Shown here one piece after another: positions 1-63,475 of a stretch of DNA of 64,000 nucleotides; within the stretch, counting starts at the first letter, position 1, and every line of letters starts with the position of its first letter. Under the pieces are notes generated by a model. The model worked only from the letters and a program-made list of their open reading frames with translations. It made no database searches and had not been told where the DNA came from. Location: the IMG/VR virus record IMGVR_UViG_3300025389_001063; one strand, given 5' to 3'. The position numbers and the translations under genes are program-made. Source of the DNA: a virus (Duplodnaviria; Caudoviricetes).

Positions 1-503
1 CTATTGGCAATTTCTAAACAGAAATCAAATTTATCTGGTGCCATCATAATATTAACATGTGTTCTTAAATCATTATGCAAAAGTTTAATTACATTTAAAA
101 AATGTTCTGGATTACCATATTCTGGATGAAAACTTAAACATACATGATCAAAATATTGTTTATGACTTTCCCACCATTTAATAGTTCTTGAACTGTTACT
201 AATAAGTCCAACCCTTGCTCCTAACGATGTTACATGTTGGCAAAGTTCTGTAAAGTGTTTATACAATGTAACTTCACCACCAGTAAATTCAAAATAAACT
301 TTTTTTGGAGCAACTTGATTTACAACTTTAGTAACAAAGTTTTTAACTGCTCCAATGTCTGGCCATTTTTTAGAACCATCGTGTAACCCTTCTGGACAGT
401 AACTACAAGAAAAATTACAGGTATTACCTAAACACCAGTTAACTACAAACCAGTTTTTATTTAAAGGATTTTGATGATCTAATAGAATATAAGAATGTTT
501 CAT
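1..503 (-). CDS. Radical SAM protein, runs off the left edge of the window (partial)
   Basis: Manual minus-strand translation from ATG 503: MKHSYILLDHQNPLNKNWFVVNWCLGNTCNFSCSYCPEGLHDG. It has the CxxxCxxC motif and resembles 17319-18215. Confidence 0.8.
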   Translation of the reverse strand, partial: MKHSYILLDHQNPLNKNWFVVNWCLGNTCNFSCSYCPEGLHDGSKKWPDIGAVKNFVTKVVNQVAPKKVYFEFTGGEVTLYKHFTELCQHVTSLGARVGLISNSSRTIKWWESHKQYFDHVCLSFHPEYGNPEHFLNVIKLLHNDLRTHVNIMMAPDKFDFCLEIAN

Positions 504-23911: not shown

Positions 23912-24919
23912 ATGAGAACCAGTGACTTTACAACTAAACCAAGTTCAAAAGTAATGAACGAGACCCTTAGCAAGAAGTTTGGCGAGAAGCTAGACCTTGA
24001 GAATTACAGCGACGAACAACTCAATAAGGCTGCTGGCTTAATTGAAAGCAGAATTGCTGTTCTTAAAAAGGGCAGGTTTAATGAGACACTGGAAAGTGAA
24101 GAGTTCTATCGTTTAAAACTTATGCACGATATTGTTAGAACTGCTATCACTGAAAGAGCAAAGAATCCATATGCGATTGGAATGGCTGCTGCTAAAAAAC
24201 AAGCAGGTATTACAGCAAAACATGCACACGATCTTCCAAAGAAGGTTGTAAAGAAAGGCCATGAGATTGCTAAGAAAATTAAAGAAGAAAAGAAAGTCGA
24301 TGAAGAGCCAAATGAAGGAAATGCATTTGGTAAAGCTGTAAGAGATGCTAAAAAAGATGGCATTCAAAAGGGTGAAAAGATTAAAGTTGGCAGTAAGACT
24401 TATCCAGTTAAAGAAACATCTAAAAAGAAGAACACAATGAAAGAATCATACGATCGTTATATTGCAGAAGGTGAAGAAGGTAAGGCTGAGATTATCATGG
24501 CTGTTAAGGACATGGTTGACAAGTTTACTACTTGGTCAGAGAATATTGCTCAGATGCAGGCACAGACTGCTATGGAAATGGCTGACAGCATTCGTAACGA
24601 GATGGGTAATGATCAAGCAGAACAATTTATTTCTTCAGTTCAACCTGCACTAGACGCTGCATTCCAGGCAGTTAAATCAGCACGTGAAGCACTTAATAAT
24701 ACTGTTGGAACACTAACAGGTGAGGCTCCTGCTCCAATGGGTGCTGAACCAGGAATGGGCAGTGACGATATGGATACAAGCGTAGGACCAGACATAGATA
24801 TAGATGCAGAAGTTCCAGGAGATGATGCAGAAGTTGATGTTGCTGCTCCAGTAGATCGTATGAAGCGTGAAAGTATTGAGAGTCGTCTACGTCTTGCAAA
24901 AATTTTGGTTGGAAAATGA
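23912..24919 (+). CDS. Probable prohead core/scaffold-like protein
   Basis: Late promoter, charged coiled-coil, acidic Pro-rich tail, and repeated (L/I)xE potential protease sites. Confidence 0.5.
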   Translation: MRTSDFTTKPSSKVMNETLSKKFGEKLDLENYSDEQLNKAAGLIESRIAVLKKGRFNETLESEEFYRLKLMHDIVRTAITERAKNPYAIGMAAAKKQAGITAKHAHDLPKKVVKKGHEIAKKIKEEKKVDEEPNEGNAFGKAVRDAKKDGIQKGEKIKVGSKTYPVKETSKKKNTMKESYDRYIAEGEEGKAEIIMAVKDMVDKFTTWSENIAQMQAQTAMEMADSIRNEMGNDQAEQFISSVQPALDAAFQAVKSAREALNNTVGTLTGEAPAPMGAEPGMGSDDMDTSVGPDIDIDAEVPGDDAEVDVAAPVDRMKRESIESRLRLAKILVGK

Positions 24920-34462: not shown

Positions 34463-36010
34463 ATGACAGGACTGGTAGGTATAAGAGCAGCATCAAGTTC
34501 AGCAGGACCCGGAGATGCTTTTTCAGGATCTCCTATTCTTTCTGGATCATCTTTTGCTTCTGGATCGTCGTTACCACCTACAAGTGATTCATTTTCTTCT
34601 ATAGGTGGATTAGGAAACTATTCAACAGCAAATGTTAGTCCTTCTCAATATCAAGGAGGTTTTGGTTCAAGCGGACAAAATGCAGGTCAGGCAGCAGCAG
34701 ATTCAACTGCTAGTCAATCAAGTTCTAGTAGCAGTAGTGACAATACTGGAAAAAATCCTCAAAGAGGTTCTAGTACTAGAAAAAGAATGAGACGTGTTGA
34801 TAATAAAGATTCTAGTTTAAGAGAACCACAACCAGCAGATGATAGAGTTAAATCTGCAACTAGTGATGATGCTGATATGTTCTTGGGTTTAAAAAGTTTA
34901 ACACAAGAAGGAAGTAGTGGAAATAATGATGGTAGTTCTTTTTTAATTGATAGTATTCCTCCTAACTTAAACGGTGTAATACAAAGTTTTGTTCCTCAAG
35001 TAGCAGGAATGCAATCATTATTAGGACAAATACCTAGTGCATCTTTAGGACAATTTTTAAATAATATACCATCAAGTTTACAAAGTTTATTACCAGCAGG
35101 AATGTTACCGGGAGTAACAAGCGGTTCTAATGTAAATTTAAGTACTATACAAAATTTAGCAAGCCAAGCAGGATTATCACAAAGTGCATTGTCAGGGTTA
35201 TTAGGATCTAATGTAGGTAGTTCTGGAGGCAGTGGGTCTTTGCCAAGTCTTGCAAATGGTTTACAAAGTTCAGCGATATCGGGACTTTCACAAGCAATTC
35301 CTTCCAATATTGCTCAATCATTGTTCAATCCTAGTCAATTAACCAGTATGCTTCCTGCTAATTTACAAAACTTAATTCCTCAAGTTCCTCCAATATTCTC
35401 AGAAGGTGCAGAAAATCTTACATCAGCAGTAGCAAATGCTGCTCCTCAGATGGCTCCAAATAGCGACCAACCTAGTGGTGGTCAGGGAAGTAATGGATGT
35501 AACCATGTTGATCCTTCCAACGATGGAAAAAATAATACTAATACTCGTTATATTGATTATACACAAATGTTGTCACAAAATTTCTCCCTAGGTCAATTAA
35601 CACTCTTGTCTGGTGTTGCTCCTGGTAGATTCCCACTAAGCGGAAAAGATTTAGATAAAGTTACTAAAAGTCTTTCTGGCGTTGCAGAAAATGTTTTAGA
35701 ACCTTTAAAAACTGCTTATGGAGCATTTACTATTGTAGGTGGACTAAGAGATGATGGCGAACATAAGGATGGAAAATGTATAGATCTTTCATGGGCATGT
35801 AGTCAAACCAAATTAATGGAAATTGCTCAATATGTACAAAACAGTCTTCCTGTATCCGAAGTTCAAATGCATCAAGGAAAAGGAAATGTAGGTTGGTTGC
35901 ATATTAAATACGACAATGGATCTTGTGGTGCTAGTGCCCAAACAAATAGTCCAGCAGGTGGACAAACTTCTGGATTAGTTGATTGGTCAACAATTCCATA
36001 TACATTTTGA
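34463..36010 (+). CDS. Gly/Ser-rich virion protein with a C-terminal M15-like peptidase domain
   Basis: LSQNFSLGQLT, NVLEPL...G, GEHKDGKCID and WLHI motifs. Confidence 0.65.
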   Translation: MTGLVGIRAASSSAGPGDAFSGSPILSGSSFASGSSLPPTSDSFSSIGGLGNYSTANVSPSQYQGGFGSSGQNAGQAAADSTASQSSSSSSSDNTGKNPQRGSSTRKRMRRVDNKDSSLREPQPADDRVKSATSDDADMFLGLKSLTQEGSSGNNDGSSFLIDSIPPNLNGVIQSFVPQVAGMQSLLGQIPSASLGQFLNNIPSSLQSLLPAGMLPGVTSGSNVNLSTIQNLASQAGLSQSALSGLLGSNVGSSGGSGSLPSLANGLQSSAISGLSQAIPSNIAQSLFNPSQLTSMLPANLQNLIPQVPPIFSEGAENLTSAVANAAPQMAPNSDQPSGGQGSNGCNHVDPSNDGKNNTNTRYIDYTQMLSQNFSLGQLTLLSGVAPGRFPLSGKDLDKVTKSLSGVAENVLEPLKTAYGAFTIVGGLRDDGEHKDGKCIDLSWACSQTKLMEIAQYVQNSLPVSEVQMHQGKGNVGWLHIKYDNGSCGASAQTNSPAGGQTSGLVDWSTIPYTF

Positions 36011-36037
36011 CACAATCTAAATCCTATGCTATAAATA
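36007..36037 (+). promoter_or_regulatory. Composite early/late promoter for the tmRNA
   Basis: TTGACA (36007-36012), N17, TATAAATA (36030-36037). Confidence 0.7.
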
Positions 36038-36039
36038 GT

Positions 36040-36348
36040 TCATCATTGTTGATATCAATGTAATAAAACGAACTGGACGCCGGGGCGGTACCGGCCGCCT
36101 CCACCATAGTAGCATTGTTTCCTAGGCCTGGCCCATGAAATCGCCCTTTGCGGTTGACAGTGCTACTTTGATGGGGGCGACAAAGGATTGACAGGCGAAT
36201 AAAGATTGAAGTAGATGGTCCGGCGAAAGCTCGGTTAACGCAATAAAACTAATAAATGCAGCAAACGATAACTTTGCTCCATCTAAGGTTTCTGCTCTAG
36301 TAGCTTGACCTTAATGAGCCCGCCGGAGCTCGGAAACAGAATCCGGCA
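36040..36348 (+). ncRNA. ssrA: Circularly permuted two-piece tmRNA (alphaproteobacterial type)
   Basis: The acceptor piece ends CGCCTCC-A-CCA at 36106. An intervening hairpin follows. The coding piece starts GGGGGCG at 36173 (G3:U70 pair). Tag ORF 36258-36308 reads AANDNFAPSKVSALVA*. The ends are approximate. Confidence 0.9.
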
Positions 36349-36403
36349 CTTAATTCAAAAAAATATTTGCTTAATCATAGTATTATGTGCTATGATTATA
36401 AAT

Positions 36404-60606: not shown

Positions 60607-61290
60607 ATGCGTTTAATAATTTTAGGTGATAGTGGAGCAGCTGGAGATCATTCTTGGCCTAAGAAATTATCAAATAAACTAAATTGTGAATTAATAAATT
60701 TTGCCAAGCCTGCTGCACAAATTCTTTTACAAATACAATTAATGCAAGATTGGCTAATTGATAATGATTTAAATAAAAATGATATTATTATTTGGCAAAT
60801 AGGATGGTCTCTACATTCTGTTGTACATATAGGACACGAACATTTAGATTCCGTTCAAAAAGCAGATAGATTTGTAAAAAATAAATTGTTTATTTCTCAT
60901 TATCATATAAGAGACAATAAAATCGATAATAAAAAAAGAATATCTTTATTACCTATTAGTCCAATTCTTCATAAATTTTCTAATAGAAAAAAACCAAATG
61001 ATGATGCAGAAGTACTTCATCAATTACTTTTTATGCTTGTAATATTAAAGAAATTATGTCCTCACATATTAGTTACTCAATCACAAGAAGAATTTGTTAA
61101 GGACGAACATTGGAAAAACTTTAAAAAAATATTAATAGAAAAAGATATTGACTTTATCGAAGAAGGTATGTATAATTGGTGTATAAGTAATAACTTAGAT
61201 ACAGAATTTTTTCATCCAACTAACGAATCTTATGGTATATATGTAGAACAAAAAATATATCCTAAATTAAAAAGTTTAGGTTGGATATAG
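60607..61290 (+). CDS. SGNH/GDSL-like hypothetical protein
   Basis: ILGDS, WPKKL...NFAKP and FHPT motifs; ATAAATA lies 4 nt before the ATG. Confidence 0.55.
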   Translation: MRLIILGDSGAAGDHSWPKKLSNKLNCELINFAKPAAQILLQIQLMQDWLIDNDLNKNDIIIWQIGWSLHSVVHIGHEHLDSVQKADRFVKNKLFISHYHIRDNKIDNKKRISLLPISPILHKFSNRKKPNDDAEVLHQLLFMLVILKKLCPHILVTQSQEEFVKDEHWKNFKKILIEKDIDFIEEGMYNWCISNNLDTEFFHPTNESYGIYVEQKIYPKLKSLGWI

Positions 61291-62067: not shown

Positions 62068-62141
62068 AGAGGTAAAGTGTTACGATAGCACATCGGTCTC
62101 CAAAACCGAGGGCGTGGGTTTGACTCCTACTACCTCTGCCA
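62068..62141 (+). tRNA. tRNA-Trp (CCA)
   Basis: TCGGT-CTCCAAA-ACCGA anticodon arm, G73, CCA; T loop TTTGACT. Confidence 0.92.
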
Positions 62142-62156
62142 AAATTTGTCGCGCTT

Positions 62157-62268
62157 GACCCGTCGCGGCAGACTTCCATACAATGCTTGGGAGTCAAATA
62201 AGTCCTACATCAACTGTGTAGGGGTATAATAGTCCGCATTCCAAAGCGTACTCGCTAACGGGTTGCCA
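62157..62268 (+). ncRNA. Candidate ncRNA with a tRNA-type acceptor stem and 3' GCCA but a non-tRNA body
   Basis: GACCCGT / ACGGGTT-G-CCA encloses three hairpins; it occupies a slot between tRNA-Trp and tRNA-Cys. Confidence 0.5.
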
Positions 62269-62272
62269 AATT

Positions 62273-62347
62273 GGGGAGGTGCCAGAACGGTTATGGGAAG
62301 GTCTGCAAAACCTTTATATGTGGGTTCGATTCCCATCCTCCCCTCCA
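62273..62347 (+). tRNA. tRNA-Cys (GCA)
   Basis: AAGGT-CTGCAAA-ACCTT anticodon arm, U73 and CCA. Confidence 0.93.
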
Positions 62348-62350
62348 ATT

Positions 62351-63238
62351 TTAGATTTTTAATCTTGCTTCTATATATTCAGCAATTTGTTCTGCGACAT
62401 TTACTTTAACATAAGTTTCAAAACCTTCAAAACCTGGAGCAGAATTTGCTTCACATACTTTGAACCCGTCGTTGTCAAATAATAAGTCGATGCCGGCTAT
62501 ATCTAATCCTAAGGCTCTTGCTGTTTTAATACAAAGTGTTTCTATTTCTTCTGTTACTTCAAATGCTTCACCAGTGCCGCCACCTGTGATATTAGCACGA
62601 AAGTCACCTTGTGGTCCTGTTCTTTTCATTGCACCAATAACTCTGTTACCTAAAACCCAAACACGAAGATCTGTGCCTTTGCTATTATCTATAAACTCTT
62701 GAACTATCATAATTTTCTTAAGACCTAGTCCGTCTATTAGTCCCATAAGGTCTTCAAATAATTTTTTATTCTCACAAAGATAAACACCTCTACCATAACT
62801 CCCTTGTAGAACTTTTACTACACAAGGAAATCCAATTTCTCCTTCTACTAAAGAACTAGAAACTGGAAACTTAACTAACATAGTTTTTGGAGTTGGAATA
62901 TTGTTTTGAGATAAAATTTGATGTGCTAATAATTTGTCTTTAACATTATTAATACCATCTATACTGTTAACTGTTGTTACAGATAATTTTTCAAGTTGTC
63001 TAATAACTGCTGAAGTAAAATAATTTGTTCCCGAACCTGTTCTATTTAGAACTATCTTAGGAAGAGTGATTTGTGTATTATTATATCTAACACTTTTTCT
63101 GTTATGTCTATTAACAATAATATCAAATTGATCAGGATTCATTAACTTAGCATTTAACTTTAGGTTACTAAATGCTTTCAAAAGTCTATCGTTTTCATAG
63201 TGTTCTATACTATGTTGACTCAAAATCCATATAGACAT
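62351..63238 (-). CDS. rimK: RimK-family ATP-grasp alpha-L-glutamate ligase
   Basis: DKLLAHQIL...IPTPKT, VVKVLQGSYGRGV, QEFI, DLRVWV, FRANI..GG, AGIDLL and EANSAPGF motifs. Confidence 0.85.
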   Translation of the reverse strand: MSIWILSQHSIEHYENDRLLKAFSNLKLNAKLMNPDQFDIIVNRHNRKSVRYNNTQITLPKIVLNRTGSGTNYFTSAVIRQLEKLSVTTVNSIDGINNVKDKLLAHQILSQNNIPTPKTMLVKFPVSSSLVEGEIGFPCVVKVLQGSYGRGVYLCENKKLFEDLMGLIDGLGLKKIMIVQEFIDNSKGTDLRVWVLGNRVIGAMKRTGPQGDFRANITGGGTGEAFEVTEEIETLCIKTARALGLDIAGIDLLFDNDGFKVCEANSAPGFEGFETYVKVNVAEQIAEYIEARLKI

Positions 63239-63475
63239 GCAGGGATCCTCTCGCATTGTATTTATTGCTATTAGTTTAGTAAAAACGTGTTATTATTCTC
63301 CTTTATTTTTCCGGTAAATATATAACCAACCAAATTTGGTGGTATTACTGATCGCATACGGACAGCCGATCAGCAGACGCAACTAAGGAGCAACATATCT
63401 ATGGCTCATAAGGATAATAATTAATCACCCCGCTCAAGAAGGGTAGTTAGTTGCGCTTATCATGAAAGGAAAAAT

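Follow-up and report, generated by a model that had tools for sequence, protein, structure and literature searches.

A candidate small non-decoding RNA gene with tRNA-like ends in the tRNA array of a giant phage, and a putative phage-specific RNA family to which it belongs

The stretch of DNA analysed here (64,000 nt; the window) comes from a methanotroph-type giant phage of low G+C content (~35%) carrying pmoC, ribonucleotide reductase and a permuted tmRNA, and its sequence was also found on a 351-kb metagenome contig. ARAGORN calls a tRNA array in the order Thr-His-Ile-Tyr-Trp, followed by a 131-nt stretch and then Cys, with CCA encoded in every tRNA. Within the 131-nt stretch lies the unit under study (~50% G+C), 15 nt after the end of tRNA-Trp and 4 nt before the start of tRNA-Cys (Table 1). 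The first-pass annotation, made from the sequence by itself, had described a 7-bp acceptor-type stem (GACCCGT/ACGGGTT) followed by a discriminator G and CCA in tRNA register, and these coordinates, neighbours and strands are as it gave them. The gene convergent on the array (62,351–63,256, minus strand) encodes a RimK-type ATP-grasp ligase, ~50% identical to proteins of T4-like cyanophages annotated ‘ribosomal protein S6 glutaminyl transferase’ and with very many relatives on large metagenome contigs. The closest relative identified by this adjacent RimK (L015, 86% identity) has no copy of the unit at the corresponding place; L015:1,910–2,220 carries a His-Ile-Met-Cys array where the window has His-Ile-Tyr-Trp-X-Cys (X, the unit), so the Tyr-Trp-X block appears to have been exchanged for a tRNA-Met between these close relatives. 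RimK relatives at about 70% identity have a different gene context.

Table 1 Features of the window at and around the unit, with the parts of the window copy named after the family consensus.
Feature	Position	Strand	Remarks
Two-piece tmRNA	36003-36350		
tRNA-Trp(CCA)	62068-62141	+	Upstream neighbour of the unit; ARAGORN
5′ leader GUCGCG	62148-62153	+	Family consensus (A/G)CCGCG; can pair with CGCGGC 62164-62169 (helix S1)
CUU linker	62154-62156	+	Loop 1 of the possible pseudoknot; U 62156 is position -1
Unit under study	62157-62268	+	112 nt, between tRNA-Trp and tRNA-Cys
P1 5′ strand GACCCGU	62157-62163	+	Acceptor-like stem; G 62157 is the predicted RNase P site (+1)
CGCGG(C)	62164-62169	+	3′ strand of S1; CGCGG invariant
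P2 hairpin GACUUCCA-UACAAUGCU-UGGGAGUC	62171-62195	+	Lineage-specific insert; holds TACAAT
Junction AAAUAAG	62196-62202	+	Family motif A-U/G-AAG-UC
P3 hairpin UCCUACA-UCAACUG-UGUAGGG	62203-62223	+	In place of the anticodon arm; loop not conserved
GGGGU + AUAAU	62222-62230	+	GGU is the P4a 5′ strand; remainder is the internal loop (N)AAU
P4 hairpin AGU-C-CGC (AUUCCAAA) GCG-U-ACU	62231-62252	+	T-arm-like; conserved UUCCA at 62239-62243
CGCUA	62253-62257	+	GCU is the P4a 3′ strand; a single A joins P4a to P1
P1 3′ strand ACGGGUU	62258-62264	+	
Discriminator G and encoded CCA	62265-62268	+	Predicted mature 3′ end
tRNA-Cys(GCA)	62273-62347	+	Downstream neighbour of the unit; ARAGORN

The three internal hairpins that had been described are present, and the unit has a minimum free energy of -39 kcal/mol (z = -3.27). 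When the 131-nt spacer is shuffled, 0.36% of the shuffles yield a 7-bp stem with NCCA that fills it; on the plus strand of the window two further non-tRNA units have such a stem and NCCA, one of which was read and lies in a coding frame, the other within the 23,912–24,919 ORF. As had been expected, tRNA and RNA finders pass over the unit: it is missed by ARAGORN and by 4227 Rfam models, at the gathering score and also at E ≤ 10. On the minus strand (62,204–62,222) the reverse complement of P3 followed by ACTTATTTGA scores as terminator-like downstream of rimK, probably incidentally.

Searches of viral and metagenome contigs with exact and end-anchored patterns from the window copy yielded chance matches only, and blastn against GenBank phages returned no match for this copy or for three other members of the family described below. 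No locus related by two neighbour proteins was found among the viral contigs, and the unit is 100% identical in seven contigs of the window phage population, which therefore provide no covariation. Homologues were reached through a 227-aa protein encoded at 60,607–61,290 of the window, which led to other pmoC phages and to unexplained gaps in their tRNA arrays. They occur in four related pmoC-phage loci, beside tRNA-Trp or tRNA-Cys: an 83-nt version lies in a gap directly after tRNA-Trp in L048, an 82-nt version between tRNA-Trp (upstream) and tRNA-Cys in L045, and an 86-nt version before a truncated tRNA-Cys in L046, with tRNA-Cys starting 4–5 nt after the homologue in L045 and L046.

Three patterns built from the conserved blocks were then run over viral contigs and syntenic copies were added, giving 31 distinct family members of 71–154 nt (stem to CCA). 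All of the search patterns included CGTCGCGG, and only the window copy and those of L045, L046 and L048 were found without it. A covariance model (R1) built from two members unrelated to the window phage (L065 and L054) gave 34 hits in 703 kb, one per locus, and matched the window copy at 33.9 bits (E 1.3e-5) under default filters. With filters off it did not return the 126-nt window copy (62,146–62,271), which is attributed to the hit-length limit of this 89-position model. Together with the homologues and the covarying helices described below, the R1 match bears out the suggestion that the tRNA slot holds a new, non-tRNA small-RNA gene with tRNA-type ends, as far as sequence comparison can tell.

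The family extends well beyond what had been noticed at the window locus. Grouped by the proteins shared in their flanks, its carriers make up at least three phage groups unrelated to one another, with roughly a dozen singletons besides; member-bearing contigs range from 34% to 57% G+C and carrier genomes from 40 to 382 kb. Exactly one copy is present in each of five whole viral records (5/5), among them three complete genomes of 40.5, 162 and 382 kb. Roughly half of the members occur on their own, away from tRNA arrays, and about ten sit ≤35 nt upstream of an ORF on the same strand. No protein is common to all carriers, whether flanks or whole genomes are compared, and the complete 40.5-kb phage has no protein common to all the others compared with it (the 162-kb phage, the 382-kb phage and the window); neighbour families encoding an exonuclease, an endolysin, a tail fibre or a terminase are common only within phage subgroups. 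A pattern without the leader, which recovers 12 of the viral members, gave five chance hits and no member among 185,579 genomes, one for each bacterial or archaeal species, and R1 found nothing in 151 genomes of one alphaproteobacterial order, that of a Bradyrhizobium genome; a host-derived origin of the family is thus not supported by either search. No member tested matches Rfam. The family appears to be confined to uncultivated phages, and the unit is best described as a putative member of a previously unannotated, phage-specific RNA family.

Several broken or recombined copies were also seen (L058:2,146–2,235, L067:2,482–2,575, L091:2,575–2,621 and L093:1,701–1,817). L058 and L067 have lost the 3′ strand to other sequence beginning immediately behind GCTAACGG, which in L058 is tRNA-Trp; L091 keeps the 5′ block alone, joined to TAACGGACC; and L093 has TTCA in place of GCCA and runs into a terminator.

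In its 5′ half the family consensus reads (A/G)CCGCG, CUU, the P1 strand G-R-Y-C-C-G-U, CGCGG, an optional P2, A-U/G-AAGUC and P3, and in its 3′ half GGGGU, (N)AAU, P4 with a (U/G)UCCA loop, (y)GCU-A, the P1 strand ACGG-R-Y-Y and GCCA, after which AUU is common. Some 40 positions do not vary, although the phages span 34–57% G+C. The CUU linker is found in 27 of the 31 members, U(-1) in 27, G(+1) in 30, GCUA before ACG in 28 and GCCA in 26; two members have two nucleotides before CCA and CCA is absent from three. The window copy has UCGCG-CUU-GACCCGU-CGCGG and ACGGGUU, with a U-G wobble at the first leader base where the family has C-G, and then AUAAGUC, P3, GGGGU, (N)AAU, P4 with a UCCA loop, GCUA and GCCA (62,198–62,268). 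It is atypical in its P2 insert, its weak P4 (3 + 3 pairs) and an A-C mismatch in P4a. Thus, the 15-nt gap after tRNA-Trp, although of the length first given, is not a spacer: GUCGCG-CUU is conserved family sequence, and the conserved unit starts upstream of 62,157.

Homologue search and covariation, proposed at the outset as checks, agree on three helices. In P1, 98–100% of alignment cells are paired, with compensatory changes at positions 1–4 (both sides changed in 4/7 pairs) and an invariant inner CCGU/ACGG. The P4 hairpin with its UCCA-type loop (UUCAA in L054) is present in 31/31 members (median, 7 contiguous pairs; 27 different strands), and both sides have changed in 7/7 modelled pairs. 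P4a (GGUx with yGCU) has x and y paired in 21/31 members by automatic anchoring (shuffle p 2e-4, five pair types), and in about 26/31 once five mis-anchored cases are read by eye. Every member has a hairpin at P3, without a conserved loop; its size runs from a C(UNCG)G mini-hairpin up to some 50 nt, and UUCG or UACG frequently forms the cap. For the nested structure as a whole, 97% of cells are paired, compared with 84% in shuffles and 28–50% with partners slid, a figure that leans towards structure because the alignment was fitted to the model; the P1 count (based on MAFFT) and the P4 and P4a counts (alignment-free) are free of this bias. All G-U wobbles lie on the unit's own strand, which argues that the structure belongs to RNA rather than DNA.

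The family alignment also alters how parts of the window copy are read. Hairpin 1 (P2) exists, but the closest relatives have neither it nor the loop pairings proposed for it (AATGC with GCATT): P2 has no counterpart in L045 and L048 (alignment) or in L046 and L071 (ungapped sequences), and its site is taken by longer hairpins in members of roughly 150 nt. The proposed GCGG/TCGC extension of the terminal stem is possible in the window copy, but in the family the GC of GCUA pairs with GGU in P4a, and the partner of CGCGG is the leader. Similarly, the absence of a D arm and of an anticodon loop holds, but the absence of a TTC loop does so only in part, as the AUUCCAAA loop of the third hairpin contains the conserved, T-loop-like UUCCA. 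The leader CCGCG, present in 12/12 matches of the pattern that does not contain it, is complementary to the invariant CGCGG directly after the P1 5′ strand and can pair with it in every member counted. Both strands of this helix (S1) are invariant and therefore show no covariation; a sixth pair (A-U, G-U or G-C) is present in about 60% of members, as read by eye. RNAalifold gives an alternative in which P1 is extended by G-C and C-G pairs to the GC of GCUA, and this is disfavoured because P4a covaries.

Pairing of the leader with CGCGG would create an H-type pseudoknot with a 3-nt loop 1, and, if both helices form, S1 and P1 would stack into a quasi-continuous, nicked helix of 12–13 bp ending in GCCA. 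This is the length of a tRNA acceptor stem plus T stem, and three nucleotides are able to cross the deep groove of a 7-bp helix in pseudoknot geometry. If the leader is needed in the mature RNA, a cut at 62,157 would sever it, and the mature 5′ end could then lie upstream of 62,157. Bacterial RNase P is reported to cut a pseudoknot substrate in loop 1 when given an RCCA 3′ end (PMC12710915).

Taken together, the alignment describes a tRNA-like frame: a 7-bp terminal stem, a discriminator G and CCA, and what looks like a T-arm domain made of P4a, an internal loop and P4. A D arm is missing, and in its place stands the invariant CGCGG, whose sole invariant partner would be the leader CCGCG. Likeness to a canonical tRNA (RF00005) includes the 7-bp acceptor stem, the single discriminator, CCA, U(-1)/G(+1), a U-U-C-N-A loop and a three-arm junction. 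In contrast to tRNA, the family lacks a D arm, an anticodon loop and the G53-C61/TPsiC consensus; its T-like arm is split by an internal loop, one A lies between this arm and the acceptor strand, and the loop has C instead of a purine at the fourth T-loop position. The P3 loop of the window copy (UCAACUG) has C at the position equivalent to 33, where tRNA has U33. RF00005 gives no match on the unit at E ≤ 10, and no Rfam model, including any for the tRNA-like domain of tmRNA, bacterial Y RNA-like RNAs or other curated tRNA mimics, matches the unit or the members tested. A likeness to Y RNA suggested by the word ‘UGGUCCG’ was likewise dropped, Rfam giving no match; the helix pattern of the unit differs from the Ro-binding helix of Y RNA.

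The nearest parallels in kind, not in family, are the rnaC and rnaD genes of phage T4 (species 1 and 2 RNAs), which encode stable RNAs of unknown role and are also non-tRNA RNA genes at tRNA-like spacing in a phage tRNA cluster: rnaD lies 1 nt after tRNA-Arg and rnaC 6 nt after rnaD, rnaC has a T-arm-like hairpin, and CCA follows rnaD. R1 with filters off on the T4 tRNA region gave a best score of 5.7 bits (E 3.3), i.e. no homology. The present family differs in its invariant leader and CGCGG core, in having no canonical T arm, and in being spread over unrelated phages with about half of its members outside tRNA clusters. The tRNA region of phage T5 also encodes stable non-tRNA RNAs. A second parallel is the 3′ tRNA-like structure of plant RNA viruses such as turnip yellow mosaic virus, an NCCA-ended acceptor arm built with a pseudoknot, as proposed for this family, and recognised without any decoding by RNase P, the CCA-adding enzyme and a synthetase. 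It forms the 3′ end of a eukaryotic-virus RNA genome and its pseudoknot is local, whereas the unit is a separate gene of a DNA phage and its pseudoknot strand would come from the leader.

On this evidence we consider it probable, though well short of certain, that the unit encodes a small structured RNA that does not decode, has a tRNA-like frame, belongs to a phage-specific family, is probably matured by RNase P and 3′ processing, and acts through host factors that read acceptor ends. The combination of U(-1), G(+1), a 7-bp stem and GCCA is the sequence signature of a good bacterial RNase P substrate, and the RNA would presumably be matured by tRNA-processing enzymes, as suggested earlier. 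It would be transcribed together with the tRNA array; RNase P would cut at 62,156/62,157; and the 4-nt trailer would be lost when tRNA-Cys is excised and trimmed, leaving a stable product of roughly 112 nt, or ~125 nt with the leader retained. Excision of tRNA-Trp and tRNA-Cys would free the unit in any case, and its fold should stabilise the RNA. Such an RNA could offer a tRNA acceptor end and a T-loop-like elbow to host factors without codon reading; candidate targets are RNase P, the CCA-adding enzyme, a synthetase, and defence toxins that modify CCA ends. A conserved host component is suggested as target because the carriers share no phage protein while the core is invariant across phages of very different G+C content. 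Likewise, one copy per unrelated phage, and absence of the family from the bacteria, cultured phages and Rfam models searched, argue for a function under selection that is exerted via such a component. The RNA may also be co-induced with the tRNAs, be aminoacylated or act as a decoy, as raised by the first-pass annotation.

The strongest rival holds that the fold is a processing or punctuation element, recruiting RNase P and 3′ enzymes to cut polycistronic transcripts or to give mRNAs protected ends, the RNA itself being a by-product. Plant mitochondrial t-elements are tRNA-like punctuation of this kind, giving mRNAs defined ends. The stand-alone members fit such a role, or one in cis, lying co-directionally between ORFs, with those ≤35 nt before an ORF start preceding a ribosome-binding site and an intrinsic terminator following some (L093, L058), and the consensus RNase P features together with the lack of any partner protein point the same way. 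However, some 40 positions are invariant although RNase P does not depend on any particular sequence; an extra cutting site is not needed inside a tRNA array; and one copy per genome is few for such a system. We therefore hold this explanation to be unlikely, though it deserves to be kept in view.

A bolder form of the preferred reading, a tRNA-like RNA addressed to host acceptor-end readers, would make the family a phage-wide, pseudoknotted acceptor-arm mimic that serves counter-defence or hijacking by absorbing, or being charged by, host acceptor-end enzymes; we regard it as rather doubtful. Its targets may include toxSAS and MenT-type toxins, which disable the tRNA 3′ end in abortive infection, a synthetase, or RNase P. 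Host toxins are described that read the acceptor stem and modify the CCA end, namely FaRel2 (PMC11245113) and MenT (PMC10435456), and phage tRNAs are described as countering tRNA-directed defences (PMC11555353); since both such toxins and such tRNAs are known, a decoy role is plausible. If true, it would be the first RNA decoy of this type in DNA phages, a bacterial-virus counterpart of the plant-virus tRNA-like structures, and would introduce RNA as a further level in the arms race over tRNA-targeting defence.

Less likely again is a catalytic or ligand-sensing RNA, i.e. a new self-cleaving ribozyme or a riboswitch-like aptamer in which the variable helices serve as scaffold for a core made up of pseudoknot and junction strands. 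An invariant core, peripheral helices free in length and sequence, a possible pseudoknot, restriction to phages (as in several small ribozyme classes) and the position of some copies directly upstream of ORFs would all suit it, but no Rfam ribozyme or riboswitch matches even at E ≤ 10, and the NCCA end, U(-1)/G(+1) and placement in a tRNA slot are better explained by tRNA mimicry. The words GCUAACG and GAUAUAAGUC recall core elements of group I introns; neither these introns nor self-cleaving ribozymes give an Rfam match, and the unit is too short for a group I intron. Mimicry of helix 18 of 16S rRNA (GGCUAAC, CCGCGGUAAUAC) was also considered and rejected, as eight members compared with E. 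coli 16S and 23S rRNA score within shuffles, and so was the idea that AUGAUGA in the large forms is a C/D box or kink-turn, for which snoRNA matches are insignificant.

The tRNA slot, acceptor stem, CCA and T-loop-like hairpin suggest a decoding tRNA that has either decayed to a pseudogene or been rewired into a highly unusual form, but we consider this very improbable: no member has a conserved 7-nt anticodon loop, P3 varying in size between the UNCG-capped mini-hairpin and some 50 nt; covarying helices would not persist in a pseudogene across phages that are unrelated; and the tRNA model finds nothing even at the relaxed threshold. Hardly any weight is left for the caveat that TTGACC-N18-TACAAT is an internal sigma-70 promoter for tRNA-Cys (10/12 match at 62,155–62,184) and the fold accidental, as TACAAT is part of the 26-nt insert that the related phages L045, L046 and L048 do not have, TTGRYC belongs to a conserved, covarying RNA stem, the region contains 9 promoter-like sites against 11.2 in shuffles, and the fold is kept across the 31 members.

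For fifty years a handful of stable RNAs without an assigned role have been known from phage tRNA clusters, and they have been regarded as oddities of T4 and T5. The difference here is one of scope, a single, sharply conserved family present once per genome in phages of 40 kb to 382 kb without common proteins. For the preferred reading, a non-decoding RNA with a tRNA-like frame, the family supplies a testable model (leader pseudoknot, RNase P site and CCA end), and also a seed alignment for annotating thousands of viral contigs.

Other units were noted in the arrays of the related phages. ARAGORN calls a tRNA-SeC(UCA) at L061:686–763, in a 16-tRNA phage array that also holds a family member. 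Units resembling tRNAs but not called by ARAGORN lie at L048:4,255–4,335, directly after the homologue, and in the 734-nt Ile-Lys gap of L045 (6,962–7,695); they start with GCGGGCGGGGGG and combine a T arm and CCA with a loop reading CUCAUAA or CUCAUAC (CAU anticodon), and the L045 gap seems to contain several more. After tRNA-Ile in two related pmoC phages (L046:6,927–7,030 and L048:7,056–7,160) there is a conserved unit of ~100 nt, ACCGGTTTCGGT-S-GCCCGGTCT...CCAAGGGCAAGATG-Y-AGATAAAACCGA, followed by another tRNA-like unit, with an Rfam tRNA at L048:7,168–7,250.
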